A stretch of DNA of 56,079 nt from a virus (taxonomy: Duplodnaviria; Caudoviricetes), in the IMG/VR virus record IMGVR_UViG_3300027736_000055, positions 1 to 56,079 of that record; one strand, 5' to 3'. Positions within the stretch are counted from its first letter, which is position 1, and every line of letters begins with the position of its first letter. Below the pieces are notes generated by a model. It ran no database searches and had not been told where the DNA came from. It saw nothing but the letters and a program-made list of their open reading frames with translations. Shown here in pieces: positions 12,241 to 37,221 of the stretch. The position numbers and the translations under genes were made by a program.

Positions 12241-12271
12241 ACTTATAGTGATTTAGTTTTATATCGAAAAA
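12241..12271 (+). promoter_or_regulatory. Putative -33/-7 promoter for the capsid genes
   Basis: TTTG (12241-12244), 19-nt spacer, TAGTTTTA (12264-12271); one mismatch to TAnnTTTG. Confidence 0.5.
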
Positions 12272-12295
12272 CCAATTAAAAAATCCCAACTACGT

Positions 12296-13543
12296 ATGGC
12301 CAATGATTTAGAAACCCCAGATTTTGGGAATTTCAGCATTCAGAGCACCATGGAAGGTGTAGGTAATGCAGAGCTATTAAATGATTTAATGGCTCCAGAA
12401 ACATCTACAGGCAATCCTGATGATATTCAAGATATAAATGCTCCTGAAGTTCCTAAAAAGAAAGCTGCAGTGAAAGCTCTAGCATCTGATGAAGAAGAAA
12501 ATAAGAAAGACGATGACGCTCCTAAACAGGATATCACTGATTTCTTATACGGTACAGATGATGATGAAGAAGAAGATGAAGATGGAACACCAGCTAAACC
12601 TGTTGCAAAAGCTACTGATACTACATCTGATGAAGACGAGGATGATGAAGATGGAGCTAATCCATTTACAGCATTTGCTAGAGACTTATTCAAGTTAGGT
12701 GGTTTCACTGCAGACGAAGATGAAGAAGAAGCACCAATTAATACAGCAGAAGAATTTTTAGATAGATTCAATGCTGAGAAAAAGAAAGGAGCTATTACAA
12801 TTGTTAATGAATTCATCGGACAGTTTGGTGAAGATTACCAGGATGCATTCCAGGCAATCTTTGTTAAAGGTGTTAACCCTAGAGATTATTATGGCACATA
12901 CAACGCTATTGAGAACTATGCAGAAATGGACTTGTCCAATGAAGCAAATCAAGTAGCGGTTATTAGACAAGCTTTAACTGATCAAGAATTTGATCAAGAA
13001 GATATTGAAACGGAGATTGAAAAACTTCGTAATTATGGTGACCTAGAAAGTACAGCAACTAGACATCATAAAGTGTTAGTAAAGAAAGAAGCTACAAAGC
13101 TTCAAAAATTGGAGCAAGAGAAAGAGACCCAATTAAAACAACAAGCTGCTTACAAGCAACAGTACGCACAGAACGTGGGTGCTATTTTGCAAGATAAGGT
13201 GAAAGCAAAGGAGTTTGATGGTATTCCTCTTAATCCAAAATTGGCTGGCGAACTACAAGATTTTTTGGTTACAGATAGATACAAAACAGGATCTGGCGAA
13301 ATGCTTACAGAATTTGATCGTACTATCTTGGAACTGAAGAGACCCGAGAATCATGAGATGAAGGTTAAAGTGGCACTACTTTTAAAAATCCTAGAAAAGG
13401 ATCCTACGTTATCAACAATTCAAAAGGCAGGTGTAACCAAAAAAACAGATACTCTGTTTGGAGAAGTTACACGACAATCTTCTAAGTCAGCCGTAAAATC
13501 TAGTAAAGGTTCTTCCAAGCCTACCTCATGGTGGAGTAATTAA
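12296..13543 (+). CDS. Scaffold-like head assembly protein
   Basis: Very acidic, low-complexity N-half and helical C-half; lies between portal and capsid genes as in crAss-like phages. Confidence 0.65.
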   Translation: MANDLETPDFGNFSIQSTMEGVGNAELLNDLMAPETSTGNPDDIQDINAPEVPKKKAAVKALASDEEENKKDDDAPKQDITDFLYGTDDDEEEDEDGTPAKPVAKATDTTSDEDEDDEDGANPFTAFARDLFKLGGFTADEDEEEAPINTAEEFLDRFNAEKKKGAITIVNEFIGQFGEDYQDAFQAIFVKGVNPRDYYGTYNAIENYAEMDLSNEANQVAVIRQALTDQEFDQEDIETEIEKLRNYGDLESTATRHHKVLVKKEATKLQKLEQEKETQLKQQAAYKQQYAQNVGAILQDKVKAKEFDGIPLNPKLAGELQDFLVTDRYKTGSGEMLTEFDRTILELKRPENHEMKVKVALLLKILEKDPTLSTIQKAGVTKKTDTLFGEVTRQSSKSAVKSSKGSSKPTSWWSN

Positions 13544-13570: not shown

Positions 13571-15124
13571 ATGGCAATTCAAACAATCCCAGGTTTAACT
13601 GGATTTACCTACGCTCGCGTTGCGTCTATGGACAAACGTGCAGTTGGTAAGTTAACAGACTCTAACCACTTGGAAAGCTTTCACTCGACTGAGCCAGCAG
13701 ACTATGATAAGAAAATTATCAGTTTGTACACTCAGAGCTCATTGTACAGCAACGACTTCTTGGACATGATCAACAAGTCAACTCCGTTCTACATTGATAA
13801 TAATAGTGATGCTTGGAAGTGGCAGGTAGCTGTACCTTACAAATTCCCTAAAATTATTGACATCCCTACTACTACCTTAGAATTATCTAAGCCAGGTATT
13901 GATGGACAAGAGTTCTCGTTAATCTTAGATACTAATGAATTCTCTAAGAACTCCATCATCTCTGTAGGTTCTCGTCAATACGGTCCTCGTTTCTACGTTA
14001 TCAAAGATCCACAGCCTTGGAACATGGGTTACTTGTACTCATTTACTTTAGTTACTGACAATCCAACTGTAGATTACGTATCCGCTACGTTCTTACAAAC
14101 TGGTATTGAGTTAGAATTAGTAGATGCTGCTATTGGTGAATTCGATCAAGACTTATTAGGATTACCACGTTTGGGTGAGCAAATCACAATGTTTGAATCA
14201 TTAGGTTCTGCATATGGTTATGAGCACAAAATTACTGAATGGGCTGATGATAAGATGTTAGTTAATGCTAATGGCTCACCTTTAGATATTTTAGTATATG
14301 CTCCACAAAGACGTAACCAATTACCTTTAACTCGTAATGATGTTAAGTGGGAACCGTTTATTGAATTCTGGATGCGTAAGTCTATGTTAGAACTTAAGGT
14401 TAAGCGTATGATCTGGGCTAAGCCTGGTAGCGTTAAGTCTGGTGGATCTAAGCAAGAGTTAAAGCGTACATCTGCTGGTGTTTATCACAGAATGCGTAAC
14501 AATGGTAACTTAGTTCAATACAACCGTGGAGAATTCACTGCTAACTTGATTCGTTCGGTATTTGGTGATTTATTCTATCGTCGTGTGGATGTTAAAGACC
14601 GTAAGGTTAAAATGTACACTAACGAAGCTGGGTTTGACGTGTTCCAACAAGCTTTGAAAAACGATGCTTTGAATTCAGGTTTGACTTTCATGGCTGATTC
14701 AGGTAATCGTTACATGCAAGGAGAAGGACAACACATCACTTACAACTTTGCATTCGATGCAATGGTTACTCGTGAGACTGGTCGTGTTGAGTTAATTCAC
14801 TTAAAAGAATTAGACCTTCCTCAATCTAACTTAGAATTTGGACAAAACAAGAAGTCTACTCCAGTATTTATGGTGTTTGACGTTTCTCCAATGTCTGATG
14901 GATCTATGGTAAATAACATTCGTGAAGTACGTATGAAGGGAGCTCCTTCTATGACTTGGGGTTATATCGATGGTACTCGTCATCACTTAGGATTTGCAAA
15001 ATCTCAAGGTATGTCAAGTGCTAACAAATTCCCAGGATACGAAATCTGGATGAAGGATCGTTGTGATGTATTTATCGAAGACTTGTCTCGTACAGTCTTA
15101 ATCGAAGAAATCCCTCAGTTCTAA
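13571..15124 (+). CDS. Major capsid protein
   Basis: 517 aa in the expected position; codon bias typical of high expression (CGT, TTC, AAC, GGT). Confidence 0.88.
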   Translation: MAIQTIPGLTGFTYARVASMDKRAVGKLTDSNHLESFHSTEPADYDKKIISLYTQSSLYSNDFLDMINKSTPFYIDNNSDAWKWQVAVPYKFPKIIDIPTTTLELSKPGIDGQEFSLILDTNEFSKNSIISVGSRQYGPRFYVIKDPQPWNMGYLYSFTLVTDNPTVDYVSATFLQTGIELELVDAAIGEFDQDLLGLPRLGEQITMFESLGSAYGYEHKITEWADDKMLVNANGSPLDILVYAPQRRNQLPLTRNDVKWEPFIEFWMRKSMLELKVKRMIWAKPGSVKSGGSKQELKRTSAGVYHRMRNNGNLVQYNRGEFTANLIRSVFGDLFYRRVDVKDRKVKMYTNEAGFDVFQQALKNDALNSGLTFMADSGNRYMQGEGQHITYNFAFDAMVTRETGRVELIHLKELDLPQSNLEFGQNKKSTPVFMVFDVSPMSDGSMVNNIREVRMKGAPSMTWGYIDGTRHHLGFAKSQGMSSANKFPGYEIWMKDRCDVFIEDLSRTVLIEEIPQF

Positions 15125-15130
15125 TATATT

Positions 15131-15277
15131 GCGAGCCTAGTGCTCGTCTCCAGCAATCGCTGGCTTTGATCAAGAAGTCTCCCACAACTCCTCCCCTCCG
15201 TGTGGGAGCTTCTTGAATTTCAGGGTGAAAGGATTGGGTTTCCTAGTCGCTAGGTCTTTCGTTAGACGTCACCCACA
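15131..15277 (+). ncRNA. Putative structured RNA element after the capsid gene
   Basis: GC-rich island with four consecutive stems, including the 16-bp bulged stem 15170-15216. Confidence 0.55.
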
Positions 15278-15303
15278 AAACCAATTATTAAATAAAACTA
15301 CAT

Positions 15304-15600
15304 ATGGGTAAGTGGAATACTTATGATATACAAAAGAAAAGTAGAGATAAATCTATTGTTCGTAATAAACTATATGTAAAAAATTATTTAGAAAATAAAG
15401 CTTGCATTGATTGTGGAAACTCAGATATTAGAGTTTTAGAATTTGATCATGCGAGAGGAGTTAAATTATATCACGTATCTTATATGATTCAAAAAGCATA
15501 TAAGCTTGATCTTATTAAAGATGAAATAGAAAAATGTGATATAAGATGTTGTAACTGTCACAGAATAGTTACACAAGAACGAAGAATTATTAATAGTTAA
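15304..15600 (+). CDS. Free-standing HNH endonuclease
   Basis: CIDCG...LEFDH...CCNCHR motifs; visibly more AT-rich than the flanking genes. Confidence 0.85.
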   Translation: MGKWNTYDIQKKSRDKSIVRNKLYVKNYLENKACIDCGNSDIRVLEFDHARGVKLYHVSYMIQKAYKLDLIKDEIEKCDIRCCNCHRIVTQERRIINS

Positions 15601-15628
15601 AACCAACAATAAATTAAAACTACATATC

Positions 15629-16597
15629 ATGGGTAAAATAGGTAAAATCTCTACTATTAAAAGAGAGTTCAATGACTCTTTAATTCAAACAATGCAGAGC
15701 GAGCTCTCTAAAAGAGGCATGTCACGTATTCCAGGAACTGGTGTATTCAAGTATCCTTACAAGGAACTTGGTGGTAAATACCGAACAGGATTAGATCCAG
15801 ATGCTGCTTACATTAAGCGTATTCTTGATACTACAGGAAGAGAACTTGAAATCGAACGTGTAACTAAGCTTCGTGAGAAGTTAGAAGCAGAGTTAGGTGG
15901 TATTAACTTAGGACCAAATGCACCATTTTGGAATGCAGGTTTATCTACTGGTTCAGAAGATAACACTCACGTTCAACCAGTTAAGTTGATGGATGGAGAT
16001 AACTATTTTGACTTCACTAATCCTTTTAAAGAGTTAGAGTTTGCATGGTTAAGAGTTCATCCAACTATTGCTTCTAGTTATGAATCATGGGTTAGAGGTG
16101 ACTTTCCTGCAGAGACACAGTTCTACGTTGTAGACGATGAGATTGAAAGTGCTATTGTTTACAAGAAGAAACAAGTAATCAATAAAGCAATCATCAAGTT
16201 TGATGCAATGAGTATTGAGAAGAAACGTAAAGTAGCAAGATTACTAGGCTTACCTATTAGCGATGAAACTAAAGAAGAAGTAGTCTACAACTTAGTAGAT
16301 AACATGTTAAAACAATCGGAGTTTAAAGAAGGTCAATACCAAGGTTTATCTCCAGTTGAAGTCTTTACAAGATTTGCAGATATGAAAGATGACTTGTTAG
16401 CTGTAAAAGATTTAGTGAAACAAGCATTAACACATTCAGTTTACCGTAAGAAACCTAATGGTAGAATCTACATGGGAGAACTTGAAGTGGCAATAGATGA
16501 AGAAGAATTAGTTAAGTTCTTATCAAATGAAGATAATCAAGACGAGTTACTAATTCTAGAACAAAAAATAAAAGGTAAAAAACTCGCAGCAGTATGA
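15629..16597 (+). CDS. Conserved post-capsid protein (crAss gene 75-like)
   Basis: 322 aa in the syntenic position after the capsid gene. Confidence 0.6.
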   Translation: MGKIGKISTIKREFNDSLIQTMQSELSKRGMSRIPGTGVFKYPYKELGGKYRTGLDPDAAYIKRILDTTGRELEIERVTKLREKLEAELGGINLGPNAPFWNAGLSTGSEDNTHVQPVKLMDGDNYFDFTNPFKELEFAWLRVHPTIASSYESWVRGDFPAETQFYVVDDEIESAIVYKKKQVINKAIIKFDAMSIEKKRKVARLLGLPISDETKEEVVYNLVDNMLKQSEFKEGQYQGLSPVEVFTRFADMKDDLLAVKDLVKQALTHSVYRKKPNGRIYMGELEVAIDEEELVKFLSNEDNQDELLILEQKIKGKKLAAV

Positions 16598-17325
16598 TCG
16601 CAGTAGATAGTTTATTATATAAGATCGACCAAAGACTAAATAAACTGTCTACAAATGACCATCAGCAGATTGCGTTAGAAGATAAGATCCTTGCTTTAAA
16701 TGAGGCACAGATCAAGTTACTCAAGCAGAAAGTAGACGGATTTAGTACAGTCTCTGGTATGGGTATGGACGCCTTTAAAAAGCGTTATGAAGATTTGCAA
16801 AGCTTAGTGGTGAACTACCAGGATGGTAAGTTGCCACTAACTTTGAAGAACGTTGAGTTAAATCAATGGACTGCTTATATTCATAATCTTTTTCCAAAGT
16901 ATATGTTCTATGTAGATAGTTATGTACTAGCAGATAAAGGTCCTTGTATTGATAGAAAGATCTGGATTAACAAAGATCTTGCTAAACATGGTGATCTATC
17001 GTTGTTGTTAAACAACACTCATTACAGACCATCTTTTGAGTATCAAGAAACATTTAACTTTATATCTTCAGATGAGATAAGTATTTTCACTGATGGAACT
17101 TTTACTCCTACAGATATTTACATAATGTATTTTAGATATCCTATATATATTGATAAGGCAGGATACATAAGATTTGACGGAACACCTTCTGCAGATTGTA
17201 ATTGTGAACTAGAGCCATATTTAGAAGATGAGCTTTTAGATTTAACTGTAGAGAACTTAGCAATGTACACAGAGAACCAATCTGCGGCTCAAAGTGCAGC
17301 ATATAGAATTAAAACAAATGAGTAA
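16594..17325 (+). CDS. Tail ring / head-tail connector protein
   Basis: 243 aa with LNEAQ, YFRYP and CELEPYLEDELLDLTVE motifs resembling crAss ring proteins; synteny. Confidence 0.65.
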   Translation: MIAVDSLLYKIDQRLNKLSTNDHQQIALEDKILALNEAQIKLLKQKVDGFSTVSGMGMDAFKKRYEDLQSLVVNYQDGKLPLTLKNVELNQWTAYIHNLFPKYMFYVDSYVLADKGPCIDRKIWINKDLAKHGDLSLLLNNTHYRPSFEYQETFNFISSDEISIFTDGTFTPTDIYIMYFRYPIYIDKAGYIRFDGTPSADCNCELEPYLEDELLDLTVENLAMYTENQSAAQSAAYRIKTNE

Positions 17326-33883: not shown

Positions 33884-34501
33884 ATGGCTTCATTCACTGG
33901 ACTAATTTATCTAACAGTTAACTTGATAAATCAAAAAATTTATGTAGGACAAAGTACTATTGATAAGTTATCATATGTAGGAAGTGGTTCTGCTATTAGA
34001 AAAGCTATTAAAAAATATGGCAAAAGTAATTTTAATAGGGTTATATTAAGAAACAATATAACTTGTTTAGAAGAGTTAAACTTTTGGGAAAGTTATTATA
34101 TTAAATTAATAAAATCCAATAATCCTAAAATAGGTTATAATATAACATTAGGAGGAGATAATGGTGGTTGGAAACATACAGAAGAATCAATTGATAAAAT
34201 TAAAAATAGAAGTAATCAATTAGATAATAAAAAACGTATAAGAGAAATTCAAAAAATTGCTACTGAACAAAGATTAGGATCTCATCATAGTAAAGATAGT
34301 AAGATTAAAATGATGAATACTAAGTTTGGAAATGTCCGACATATTGAAATATATAAAGATGATATATTAATGTACACTTGTAATTTTTCAAAAGAAGCTC
34401 AAAACTTGACAGGAATTAAACAATCTGGAATTAAAAATAACTTATGTGGATTGTCTAAATCTGCTGGAGGTTTTATTTTTAAATATAAACAATTAAGCTA
34501 A
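33884..34501 (+). CDS. Free-standing GIY-YIG homing endonuclease (Seg-like, with NUMOD3/NUMOD1-like motifs)
   Basis: GLIY...IYVGQS, YVGSG, WESYYI, GYNITLGG, KHTEES and SAGGFIFKY motifs; very AT-rich. Confidence 0.9.
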   Translation: MASFTGLIYLTVNLINQKIYVGQSTIDKLSYVGSGSAIRKAIKKYGKSNFNRVILRNNITCLEELNFWESYYIKLIKSNNPKIGYNITLGGDNGGWKHTEESIDKIKNRSNQLDNKKRIREIQKIATEQRLGSHHSKDSKIKMMNTKFGNVRHIEIYKDDILMYTCNFSKEAQNLTGIKQSGIKNNLCGLSKSAGGFIFKYKQLS

Positions 34502-37221
34502 TGGCAAGTTTTACCGATGCAATATCGACCTTTAATCCTTACGTGCAAGAGCTCCCCGTAGATGCTATGCTAAAGGTTGGCATGTACAAGCAAGCCAAAT
34601 ACGAAGAAGGTGTTCAAAGAATTCAATCTCAGCTAGATCAGGTATACGGACTTAGTGTTAGTAGACCTGTAGATAAACAATATCTAGAATCAAAACTAGG
34701 ACAGCTAAATAACAATCTTAGATATGTTGCTGCTGGAGACTTTTCTAATCAACAGCTTGTTAACTCTGTTGGTGGTATGGCTGGTGAAATCAGCAAAGAT
34801 AGAAGAATCCAAAACGCTATGGCGTCCACTGCTAATATTACAAAGCAAGGACAAGTGATGGATGCTGCTAGACAGAAGGGTGAGCTAGCTCCAGAGAACG
34901 AAGATCTATATAACGATCATCTTGGTAAGTATCTATCTTCTACAGAAGACGAAGCAAGCTTTGTTAATGGTAGATATATTCCTTACACTAATGTATTCAA
35001 GAAGCTACAAGACGCAGCAGCAGCTGTAGGTATTGATAGTCAAGAAATTCCAACAATCCTTAAAACAGATGCAAGAGGTAACCCGATACCAGATGGTAAA
35101 GGAGGTTTTCAATGGAGTCCTATAATGGCTACAGAGAAGCTAAAAGGTAAAGATGTTGGTAAGATGTTAACAATGTTCAAAGCATCTTTAACTCCTCAAG
35201 ATTATCAACAGCTTGCTATTACAGGACGGTACACATACAAGAATGCTAGCCCTGAGGAATTAACTAGAATGATTGAGAGTGATTACTCTTCTGATAAATC
35301 AAAGTTAACAGCTGTTATCGATGACTTAAAAGTAAGATTAACTAATGAAGAAGGTTCACCTAATGCAGATATAACTAAAGTTACAGATCTTGCAGAACAA
35401 TATAAATATTACAATGAACTAAATGACAATCTAGATAAATCTATATCTTCAGAGATTGAAAATATGACTAAGAACCCTGATGCGTCTAAAGGAAGTTTAT
35501 ATACAAGAAAGTATTTAAACACTATGGCAATGAGCATGAGTGGTGTTGAGAAATCTAAGAGCTATTCAATAAGTCCTAACTATACAATATGGAACGATGA
35601 TAGAAATTTCCAAGCAGCTCAACAAAGAGAACGTAATACTCAATCACGTTGGTGGTACGAGCAAGAGTATAAGGCAAATAAAGATAAAGGAGATGCTTGG
35701 TTAGAACAGTTAAAGATGCATTTAGAGTTTGGTGGGCCACCTCCTGCAGGATATAAACCCAAACAACTTAAGTCTCCTTTTGATGTAGAAGGTGGAGAAG
35801 CTTACGATATAGTTAATCAAAAGAAAAATGAATATAGCGATGTACTAGGTGCTACTAACCAAGCTGCGTATGCATTAACTATAGCAAACTTCAAAAATGC
35901 TCATGCTAAACAACCTGGAGAAAAGGACCAAGCATACAACGAGAGGATTGCTAAGATGATTGCTAATATAGCTAAGGTTAAAGGTGTAGTTATAGATCCT
36001 AACTCTGGAGACATTAATGATTTAACAAATCAGTTTGCTTCAGAGATGGTTACTAAGTGGAAGAAGGGTGGTAACATTCCTTTACAATATAGAGACTTAG
36101 TAAGACAATATGATACAGGTCTTAAAGATGCTACTACATTAAGAGGTCAGCTTGAAGAGTTTGATAGAAAAGCAATTGCTGAAGCTAAGTTACAAGGAGT
36201 AGATGTTAAGTCTAACGCTGAGATTAAGAAGTTAATAAAGCCAGTTACAATTGATACTTATAATCCTTCAACTGGAATACAATCTAAAGTGACATTAACT
36301 GCTGATGATGTAATGGATTGGACATTAATTAATGCAGATCACTTCGAGTTTTTTGGAGGAATGGCTCTAGGTAAAGATCAGGAATCTAATAGACGTGCCG
36401 CTACATTAAGACAACAAGCTAAATTAGGAAATAAGTTTAATGACGTAAGTAACTCTGTTCGTACATCTGATCCAGGCAATGGTCGAAGTATAGTTCATCC
36501 AGGCATTCAAAATGCAGGAGATGTTATGAAGAAAGCTGGAGTTGATAAGAAAACAAAGATATTAGCAAAGCTATATCAAGACGCTGGTTATTCAACACAA
36601 CCGCTAATTACCCCTGTCAATAGAGGAAAGGCTAATAAAGATGATATTGATAATAATCTAATACAGATAGTAGATAACTATGTAGGTGTAGCAGATAATG
36701 CAGAAGCTGTAAAGGCAGCCATCTTATCTCCAGACAGTAAAGTGGGAATGCGAGTTATTCCTAAAGGTGCAGGAATGGGTAATGCCTATCAAATGGTAGT
36801 TACTAAGAGAGACGGTACCACTGAGGAATTAGCTGTTCAAGAATCTGACTATGAATATATGTTTGGACAAGCTCCAAGAAGCTCACCTGTTCCCAAAGTA
36901 CTTAATCAAATCAATGCATTTGGTACAAGTAACTTAGGTGGAACAAATAACCCTGATACATCTTGGTGGGGAAGTGATGATTTTATCAACTTAAAAAATT
37001 ACAAATATGGTATCACTGCTGATCTAGTTCCAGACCCAGGTCTTGATAAAAACAAACTATGGTTCGTCATGAATTTACATGATAAAAAGTCAGGAGATGT
37101 TATTAAACCAGTAACATACCCTAAGCCTTTTTATAAAATAATTGATGGCCAAATGAATACGCAGTTAGATGCATTACCTACAGGTATAAATCCATCTGTC
37201 TTAGAAGGAATAATGAAATAA
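34501..37221 (+). CDS. Cargo / ejection protein preceding the virion RNA polymerase
   Basis: 906 aa, helical; first of three consecutive large genes, as in phi14:2-like phages. Confidence 0.65.
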   Translation: MASFTDAISTFNPYVQELPVDAMLKVGMYKQAKYEEGVQRIQSQLDQVYGLSVSRPVDKQYLESKLGQLNNNLRYVAAGDFSNQQLVNSVGGMAGEISKDRRIQNAMASTANITKQGQVMDAARQKGELAPENEDLYNDHLGKYLSSTEDEASFVNGRYIPYTNVFKKLQDAAAAVGIDSQEIPTILKTDARGNPIPDGKGGFQWSPIMATEKLKGKDVGKMLTMFKASLTPQDYQQLAITGRYTYKNASPEELTRMIESDYSSDKSKLTAVIDDLKVRLTNEEGSPNADITKVTDLAEQYKYYNELNDNLDKSISSEIENMTKNPDASKGSLYTRKYLNTMAMSMSGVEKSKSYSISPNYTIWNDDRNFQAAQQRERNTQSRWWYEQEYKANKDKGDAWLEQLKMHLEFGGPPPAGYKPKQLKSPFDVEGGEAYDIVNQKKNEYSDVLGATNQAAYALTIANFKNAHAKQPGEKDQAYNERIAKMIANIAKVKGVVIDPNSGDINDLTNQFASEMVTKWKKGGNIPLQYRDLVRQYDTGLKDATTLRGQLEEFDRKAIAEAKLQGVDVKSNAEIKKLIKPVTIDTYNPSTGIQSKVTLTADDVMDWTLINADHFEFFGGMALGKDQESNRRAATLRQQAKLGNKFNDVSNSVRTSDPGNGRSIVHPGIQNAGDVMKKAGVDKKTKILAKLYQDAGYSTQPLITPVNRGKANKDDIDNNLIQIVDNYVGVADNAEAVKAAILSPDSKVGMRVIPKGAGMGNAYQMVVTKRDGTTEELAVQESDYEYMFGQAPRSSPVPKVLNQINAFGTSNLGGTNNPDTSWWGSDDFINLKNYKYGITADLVPDPGLDKNKLWFVMNLHDKKSGDVIKPVTYPKPFYKIIDGQMNTQLDALPTGINPSVLEGIMK

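Follow-up and report, generated by a model that had tools for sequence, protein, structure and literature searches.

The 56,079-nucleotide stretch of DNA analyzed here (the window; positions 1 to 56,079 of IMG/VR virus record IMGVR_UViG_3300027736_000055) is a 56-kb fragment, with 35% GC, of a crAss-like phage. The record has an estimated completeness of 48%, and freshwater is the label of the runs that hold the sequence. A short HNH endonuclease gene lies between the major capsid protein gene and g322, the gene of 322 amino acids that follows. This nuclease gene is probably a free-standing cassette of the homing-endonuclease type that entered the post-capsid gene after its third codon and shows "start capture", an arrangement in which the nuclease would be read from the start region of the host gene while the host gene would be read from a substitute brought by the cassette.

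The start region preceding the HNH gene is found again behind it. The upstream copy (AAAACCAATTATTAAATAAAACTACAT followed by ATGGGTAAG, positions 15277-15312) precedes the 98-amino-acid open reading frame (ORF) and the downstream copy (AAAACCAACAATAAATTAAAACTACATATC followed by ATGGGTAAA, positions 15599-15637) precedes the 322-amino-acid ORF, and both proteins begin with Met-Gly-Lys (MGK). Local alignment of the two copies gives 31 identities in 35 positions, 4 mismatches and one 3-nt gap (score 23). When start regions were compared from -33 to +9, this score ranked first among the 861 leader pairs of the 42 ORFs called in the window, and it was reached by none of 5000 shuffles (shuffle maximum 18). 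An earlier reading of this DNA, made from the sequence only, had described about 35 nt of leader plus three codons as duplicated around an AT-rich nuclease gene. The duplication, the three codons and the AT-rich character are confirmed (the HNH ORF has 25.6% GC vs 35-39% in its flanks, and the leaders only 15%), as is the HNH assignment, by PHROG 2255; the size given for the leader is not, as the repeat consists of 27-30 nt of leader and 9 coding nt (36-39 nt). The second-best pair (score 19) consists of the leader of the scaffold gene, which starts at 12296, and the HNH leader. Thus, the likeness is due in part to a bipartite motif, AACCAA-N(4-18)-AACTA, which has 7 matches in the window vs 1.06 expected. 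Five complete relatives have 2-13 matches per record, chiefly at the scaffold leader, the g322 leader and one further site, and these three recur at equal spacing in G001 and G004. The form AACCAA-N-AACTA(CAT) stands right before an ATG at G001:C1:21092, 24108 and 32691, with the third site about 8.6 kb downstream. The bipartite leader, which might serve as a promoter, a processing site or a translation signal, is far better conserved than g322 itself. The similarity of the two copies therefore exceeds that of any other motif-bearing pair, the comparison proposed in the sequence-only reading, narrowly within the window alone (23 vs 19), and with so small a margin it is the related genomes that decide the question.

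The junction downstream of the capsid gene is variable among relatives. A scan of viral contigs with the capsid protein yielded more than 599 matching stretches, and in the best 80 (94-96% protein identity) a g322 homologue directly follows the capsid gene in all 80. The sequence-only reading had proposed comparing this junction across related genomes and would not have survived an HNH gene fixed in all of them; the gene is present in 8 of the 80, whereas 67 are empty and 5 are scarred (two leaders with no ORF). Empty loci have a spacer of 142-245 nt and a single leader abutting ATGGGTAAG(A/T)TAGG, read as ...AACTACAT ATGGGTAAG ATAGG..., and their g322 protein begins MGKIGKISTI or a variant of it. 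A few empty alleles have 1-3 additional bases ahead of the ATG, and one begins MAR. The HNH gene lies at exactly this place in L001, L002, L022, L034, L039, L049, L055 and L064. In the scarred loci (L054, L057, L058, L059 and L061) a few dozen bases separate the two start regions; L057-59 retain the final bases of an L022-type HNH ORF between the leaders, which identifies them as deletion scars. A further scan that started from the HNH protein contributed another 14 occupied contigs of this phage group. Six loci that duplicated earlier contigs were removed, L090 and L103 (without the capsid end) and L098 (altered g322 N-terminus, MAIGK) were kept outside the counts, and L102, L104-L107 and L109 are unrelated phages. 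The 94 classified loci, including the window, comprise 67 empty, 15 short-form, 7 long-form and 5 scarred loci. A quick maximum-likelihood search with 90 g322 rows gave a tree on which the three kinds of allele (occupied, scarred and empty) are intermixed, and the label "empty" needs 13 changes, at least 9 of which are forced by well-supported branches.

The limits of the inserted unit are set by pairs of close relatives. Over 5.5 kb, L055 (occupied) and L056 (empty) are about 99% identical (0-5 mismatches in every 100 columns), and one clean indel of 325 nt sets them apart. With the indel in square brackets, the boundary reads ...ACATATGGGT [AAG...HNH...ATTACATTATGGCA ] AAGATAGG, or, in longer form, ...AACTACATATGGGT [AAG GAAAAG...HNH...ATTACATT ATGGCA] AAGATAGG. 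The same 325-nt indel separates L001 from L003, and the distance between the two ATG codons in the window is also 325 nt. A contig of run X19 skips exactly positions 15313-15637, joining 15312 to 15638 (325 nt; borderline, with a shorter side of 30 nt), and in run X2 a near-identical occupied contig occurs together with one whose empty-type leader is joined to 15629. The indel boundaries lie within the 9 coding nt common to both copies. These boundaries define a unit that extends from HNH codon 4 through the stop codon to a leader and ATG GGN AAR, and that stands in frame after g322 codon 3.

Comparison with empty alleles distinguishes the two copies. In six backgrounds the upstream copy matches the empty allele at 42, 42, 40, 38, 35 and 33 of 42 positions, and it is identical (42/42) in L001 vs L005 and in L049 vs L056. 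Downstream copies match empty alleles at only 15-26 of 42. One downstream leader, aaaccaaatacaataattacatt, is found behind differing upstream leaders in L001 and in L049, L055 and L064. The match of the upstream copies to empty alleles, together with the divergent and cassette-specific downstream copy, indicates that the nuclease took over the start region of the host, as the sequence-only reading had supposed for the leader and first codons. In these relatives the upstream leader is thus the native one, and the host gene appears to run on a carried, diverged substitute. A fresh duplication made in situ, which that reading also implied, does not agree with these comparisons: the upstream copy is native and the downstream copy is cassette-borne, and the two copies within one genome score 7-21 with a mean of 14 of 42, vs a mean mutual score of 26 between the leaders of different empty lineages (703 pairs). 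In the window, g322 is only 66-74% identical to all others, and the search turned up no close empty relative; compared with empty alleles, the upstream copy of the window scores 25 and the downstream copy 21.

The state of the leader-start junction follows occupancy. Before g322 the junction AACTACAT|ATG is intact in 51 of 67 empty loci, or 31 of 42 when unique sequences are counted, whereas no occupied or scarred locus has it intact (0 of 27; 0 of 16 unique sequences). The Fisher p, not corrected for kinship, is 1e-12 for loci and 1.6e-7 for unique sequences. The junction is broken in at least 8 different ways, by mutation of the box or by insertion of 1-5 nt (ATC in the window), and AACCAA is kept in all 27 occupied or scarred loci. 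An intact junction combined with the native start of g322 would recreate the predicted target of the nuclease or offer homology for loss of the cassette.

The events that would produce this arrangement can be outlined as follows. A cassette of 325 bp would have been inserted in frame just past the third codon of g322. The cassette would have no expression signals of its own, and the HNH ORF would be read from the native leader, start codon and MGK codons of the host gene. The last codons and stop of the HNH ORF would run into the second, diverged leader and ATG GGT AAA carried by the cassette, and the host gene would be translated from this carried copy with its N-terminus unchanged. Full-length forms of the nuclease, with a helix-turn-helix (HTH) domain joined to the HNH domain, would cut the empty site, which is predicted to span AACTACAT|ATGGGTAAG|ATAGG, and the cassette would spread through double-strand-break repair between co-infecting phages. 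The altered ACAT-ATG junction may protect the occupied genome from being cut again and may limit loss by recombination between the repeats. The fusion to MGK would be secondary, derived from a form with its own start (MSNNSSK-YK...) through a junction at the shared AAG. Stages of decay are visible among the relatives, in the loss of the HTH-like domain and in scars devoid of an ORF.

In the window these elements all lie on the plus strand. The native upstream leader, AAAACCAA...AACTACAT, identified from the sequence and the empty alleles of relatives, occupies 15277-15303 and would now serve the HNH ORF. The putative captured start, ATG GGT AAG (MGK), is at 15304-15312 and corresponds, according to the empty alleles and the insertion boundary, to the first three codons of the host gene. 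The HNH ORF (98 amino acids, short form) extends from 15304 to 15600 and is assigned from its PHROG matches, invariant CxxC...DH...CxxCH residues, dN/dS (ratio of nonsynonymous to synonymous substitution rates) and GC content. The 325-bp cassette, delimited by comparison of relatives with an ambiguity of about 3 nt, occupies 15313-15637 and contains HNH codons 4-98, the stop, the surrogate leader and the surrogate ATG GGT AAA. The surrogate leader (15599-15628), which is apparently cassette-borne, overlaps the HNH stop and has an extra ATC (3 nt) between ACAT and ATG. Gene g322, with the N-terminus MGKIGKISTI, occupies 15629-16597 in the head module and belongs to PHROG 16383 ("unknown function").

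Several lines of evidence place the 98-amino-acid protein in the HNH family. It matches PHROG 2255 (E value 1.7e-20), 3106 (1.3e-15) and 4234 (3.6e-07), all annotated as HNH endonuclease, and its homologue P0052 is named "predicted HNH restriction endonuclease" by its source. Across 12 sequences that are 41-83% identical, residues C34, C37, D48, H49, C82, N84, C85 and H86 do not vary. An AlphaFold model with a predicted local distance difference test score (pLDDT) of 92.5 has strands at 45-49 and 78-82 and a helix at 83-97, a strand-strand-helix core. A presumed catalytic histidine at the end of the first strand and paired CxxC zinc ligands, roles that are assigned by analogy, are those expected of an HNH nuclease. 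For the same protein Pfam yields no row at all, the NCBIfam row is at chance level, the phmmer rows against PDB sequences are cytochrome c (E value 0.08), and a Foldseek search with the HNH model gave no match at an E value of 0.001 or below.

The nucleases found at this site fall into two size classes, one of 145-157 amino acids with an N-terminal HTH-like domain and one of 98-105 amino acids without it, to which that of the window belongs. The HTH-like domain is indicated by weak Pfam HTH matches below the cut-off, by a match to the RhlR HTH profile (E value 0.011) and by precomputed HTH_23 and HTH_38 matches in a few homologues. The profile of A1, compared with the PDB, matched HTH proteins only, through the N-terminal domain of the long forms. 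The short forms are under purifying selection, with dN/dS of 0.02-0.19 in 28 of 28 pairs, and are not decaying.

The MGK start is found in 20 of the 22 classified HNH ORFs at this site. L094 and L095 contain a homologous HNH gene at the same site with its own ATG 5 nt past AACTACAT and the start MSNNSSKYK; capture of the codons is thus not obligatory. In L092 and L093, 13 nt (MGKL and a G) are common with the host start. Among 85 homologous protein clusters across the family, 29 start with MGK and 17 with MSN(NSSKYK), and the K of MGK aligns opposite K7 of the MSN forms. These counts and this alignment indicate that MGK was acquired at this site and is no family trait, and the shared AAG at the junction suggests that a cassette with its own start was later fused to the native one.

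Presence and absence at one fixed site in near-identical genomes, with no intron or intein, fit a free-standing element. A group I intron or an intein was considered and rejected: Rfam gives no match at either the gathering or the E-value threshold, the stop of the HNH ORF is at 15600, and g322 begins at an ATG of its own, with its N-terminus complete and unaltered. A transposon with target-site duplication was also rejected, as the copies are diverged (7-21 of 42), the downstream copy is cassette-specific and the sole ORF is the 98-amino-acid HNH. L034 and L083 have cassettes with 95.8% identity, more than at the 3' end of the capsid gene (89.6%) or in g322 (83.0%). Another HNH sequence is found in L052 (positions 2400-2700; the same as L108), where a truncated remnant of the C-terminal ~50 residues, ...KEIDKCEVRCCNCHRIVTIERRKKR*, sits between a AAAACCAA box and the scaffold leader AAACCAA..AACTACAT, just upstream of that leader. 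It represents a second insertion site at a paralogous leader, in 1 of 93 relatives.

A number of observations weigh against a homing cassette with a captured start. Within the window, the leader pair scores barely above the scaffold and HNH pair (23 vs 19), and the native status of its upstream copy would rest on relatives and on the borderline X19 joint (side of 30 nt). Upstream copies without the AAACCAA box occur in L096, L099, L101, L022 and the scars, and such box-less alleles could equally be described as a cassette carrying its own minimal leader. The L055/L056 pair has no co-conversion tract, and gain there is indistinguishable from precise loss. The pair L034 and L083 is the single one that argues for lateral transfer, as the other cassette pairs are not discordant. 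Pfam HNH models give no match to the 98-amino-acid protein even at an E value of 10, and the best HNH rows in VIA-align (4h9d, Z 3.6; 7rwm, 3.3; 5h0o, 3.2; 1e7d, 2.9) are mixed with unrelated chains of equal Z. Finally, the form in the window lacks the HTH-like domain, which makes its site specificity, and hence autonomous homing, doubtful.

Other explanations account for parts of these data. A chance or convergent likeness of two A/T-rich, motif-bearing leaders with no historical link is extremely improbable: the scaffold leader is indeed almost as similar (19 vs 23) and the leaders have 15% GC, but no shuffle in 5000 reaches the score of the pair, a single leader in each of the 67 empty alleles contrasts with a second start region in each of the 27 occupied or scarred loci, and the indel boundaries fall in the common 9 coding nt. 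The comparative data already refute it. The bipartite leader could also act as a regulatory repeat (AAACCAA...AACTACAT) at a few late-gene starts, with ordinary or short-homology recombination between its copies inserting and deleting ORFs as passive cargo and the nuclease playing no part; a similar proposal reportedly exists for the PeSL elements of T4-type phages. The motif flanks the HNH gene and also precedes the scaffold gene, the L052 remnant sits at that second leader site, between the AAAACCAA box and the scaffold leader, and scars and clean losses point to frequent deletion. This is nonetheless quite unlikely, because the common segment takes in 9-13 coding nt that a regulatory repeat could do without, and because the copies in one genome are poorly alike (mean 14/42) and the downstream one is always altered, making them a poor substrate for homologous exchange. 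Moreover, of 93 relatives a single one has an HNH trace at the other leader, the HNH ORF is under strong purifying selection, and an unrelated GIY-YIG gene in the window shares a start in the same way behind a different leader.

The remaining alternative is a domesticated accessory gene, in which the short HNH is kept for its usefulness to the phage (e.g., in degrading competitor or host DNA, or in packaging) and is moved by general recombination, the duplicated start being a relic of one ancient illegitimate insertion. HK97-type HNH proteins assist packaging, and the gene is located in the head/packaging module. The HTH-less short forms, with their low dN/dS (0.02-0.19), persist in several backgrounds, and RNA library X20 contains a near-identical 155-nt contig on the HNH gene, weak evidence since DNA carry-over is possible. 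However, the gene is absent from 72 of the 80 closest relatives and so is not required, scars and truncations attest to its repeated loss, and several divergent forms lie at the same nucleotide position, as site-specific elements would. Domestication is therefore unlikely, and it is compatible with homing, as phage homing nucleases, in the account of PMC2988022, also exclude competitors.

The proposed homing cassette resembles known systems in part. Free-standing GIY-YIG and HNH genes of the T4-type seg and mob groups lie between conserved genes and are patchy among relatives, and the same source describes seven T4 endonuclease genes as promoter-less cassettes that harness upstream signals and places promoters of downstream host genes within the endonuclease coding region, as in segG/gene 32 (PMC2988022). 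In the window, likewise, the nuclease would lack signals of its own, and the start signals of the host gene reach into its 3' end. Unlike the T4 cassettes described there, which are inserted in intergenic spacers, it lies within the host ORF after codon 3, where it would use the start codon and first residues of the host and replace the translation start region and codons of the host gene. In fungal mitochondria, the mORFs of Glomus atp6, atp9, cox2 and nad3 are described as LAGLIDADG or GIY-YIG ORFs in the end of a conserved gene (PMC3630166). Each brings a diverged substitute C-terminal end that keeps the host protein whole while the native end remains alongside, the native end matching a close relative and the carried copy being divergent; the Allomyces atp6 mORF is a further case cited in that source (PMC3630166).

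The same logic of a diverged substitute gene end applies to the phage cassette, where the carried leader and ATG GGN AAR appear to replace the native 5' end and the native end persists upstream. The fungal elements replace the 3' end and leave the native 3' end idle, whereas here the 5' end would be replaced and the native one reused by the nuclease; phage and organelle also differ, as do the nuclease families. The match to mORFs is thus best taken as a working analogy and not as membership. Intron-encoded homing endonuclease ORFs that are fused in frame to the upstream exon borrow the start of the host gene. The phage nuclease would also be translated from the start of its host gene. An in-frame fusion of rps3 with a LAGLIDADG ORF is a described case (PMC7902536). 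Unlike such fusions, the window contains no intron or intein at this site, and the HNH ORF has its own stop while the host restarts at its own ATG. The PeSL cassettes of T4-type phages, units of an early promoter and a stem-loop in hyperplastic regions, were reportedly described by Arbiol et al. in 2010, and their short repeated expression signals are said to flank variable ORFs and to be able to mediate gain and loss. The repeat in the window differs in being a late-gene leader with coding bases, present at 2-3 sites per genome, whose flanking copies are poorly alike. By analogy, the element would combine the ideas of the T4 cassette and of the mORF at the 5' end of a gene. In a limited search of the open-access literature, no phage nuclease gene was found described with a leader and first codons common to the next gene.

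A second nuclease gene in the window has the same arrangement. This GIY-YIG gene (33884-34501; 24.4% GC) has a match to PHROG 314 (homing endonuclease, E value 2e-23) and, just under the cut-off, one to the NCBIfam group I intron endonuclease. Its protein starts with MASFTG, with the GIY motif at residues 7-9, and the product of the next gene (34501-37221) starts with MASFTD. The stop of the GIY-YIG gene overlaps the ATG of the next gene (TAATG). A search for relatives of this next gene found 3 distant loci (L110-L112), which are without the GIY-YIG gene and contain the MASFTD gene behind a promoter-like leader resembling that now preceding GIY-YIG. The suggestion that an unrelated nuclease family uses the same strategy is thus upheld, with five common codons and three relatives without the nuclease. 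Among the 40 adjacent same-strand gene pairs in the window, only the HNH and GIY-YIG pairs have at least 3 N-terminal residues in common; 10 of all 861 gene pairs do.

The further suggestion that this is a general way to enter dense virion operons is not borne out so far: in other phages, 66 HNH homologues of greater distance were compared with the gene behind them, and in no case are the first three residues the same. Many of the genes downstream of these distant homologues have AGGAGG-type (Shine-Dalgarno) leaders. In L143-L222, from other phage groups, HNH homologues of 87-91 amino acids have a TATAAT-like box before the HNH gene and another at its 3' end, the latter preceding the AGGAGG leader of the next gene (MA(V/I)KGS...). 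These boxes resemble the host-gene promoters embedded at the end of T4 nuclease genes. In the complete empty relatives G003 and G005, neighbors with common N-termini are tandem paralogues and lysine-rich small proteins, with no nuclease among them. Those at G003:C1:90451-91081 and 94757-98589 are tandem paralogues (MAIPSRQIGW...) and lysine-rich small proteins (MAT(V/I)KK). The G003 paralogues, which are not nucleases, imitate the start-sharing signature in a naive screen.

Start capture may, tentatively, be a distinct and recurrent architecture of homing nucleases in phages whose hosts do not rely on Shine-Dalgarno sequences (Bacteroidota-type, with A/T-rich extended leaders). HNH and GIY-YIG genes would have converged on it since no compact, portable ribosome-binding site is available in such hosts; the nuclease would target the conserved leader-start junction of an essential late gene, lodge itself a few codons inside that gene, gain a whole translation start region and carry an "immunized" surrogate. 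This possibility fits the contrast between 2 of 2 nuclease genes in the window and 0 of 66 homologues behind AGGAGG-type leaders.

If the homing cassette is interpreted correctly, natural populations contain the intermediates of a selfish nuclease settling in the start of an essential virion gene with no intron, no intein and no harm. The start region of the host would be swapped for a carried copy and the original taken by the nuclease. The leader-start junction provides a testable target prediction. The genomic signature, a nuclease ORF whose first codons are common to the next gene and which is absent from sister genomes, also flags annotation traps such as false "paralogous" N-termini and spurious leader motifs. 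Late gene expression in crAss-like phages may be approachable through the well-conserved leader and the adjoining structured RNA.

The structured RNA lies between the capsid stop and the leader and is kept in empty and occupied relatives alike. In the window it is the GC-rich intergenic segment at 15125-15276 on the plus strand (152 nt, 51% GC), which stops just short of the leader. Its consensus fold has 22 pairs, 15 of them with compensatory changes, and 94.6% of cells are paired vs 77.7% in shuffles and at most 55% in slid controls. A long GC-rich hairpin at about 15174-15212 precedes a three-way junction at about 15221-15276, in which a closing stem of 6-7 bp (CAGAGUG/CACUCUG; GGGUGA/UCACCC in the window) surrounds two hairpins. 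Searches of the window with Rfam at the gathering threshold, of 13804-17097 with Rfam at E values up to 10, and with ARAGORN gave no match at the spacer or elsewhere. A tRNA-like spacer, considered for its 7-bp closing stem and TTCGAT-type loop, was rejected because the loop has 6 nt and not 7, its fifth base is unconserved and ARAGORN and Rfam are silent. The 5' end of the g322 message may be set by this structure, acting as a terminator, a stabilizer or a processing element. Depth drops past the capsid gene in RNA libraries X19 and X20, which consist of contigs and hence give no measure of expression level, and stretches left uncovered there carry no information. An additional hairpin-containing insert between the structured RNA and the leader is present in one empty allele (L067:3433-3680; spacer 248 nt).

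The genes around the site belong to the head module. Outside the cassette, the plus strand has a paralogous leader with the bipartite motif at 12270-12295, that of the scaffold gene. The major capsid protein gene follows at 13571-15124 on the same strand and is assigned from Pfam PF23898 (Crass_capsid, E value 2.8e-28) and PHROG 11589 (major head protein). Megablast found no match to 13571-17325 among deposited phage genomes. The g322 protein has no Pfam, PDB-sequence or fold match; its model has a pLDDT of 63.7, and the fold search gave only a 59-residue RecA piece (E value 0.33). The capsid protein of the window is 94-96% identical to those of the 80 relatives, whereas for the adjacent g322 protein the identity to every one of them is just 66-74%. 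This sharp drop in similarity across the insertion site could reflect recombination at the junction or fast evolution of g322.

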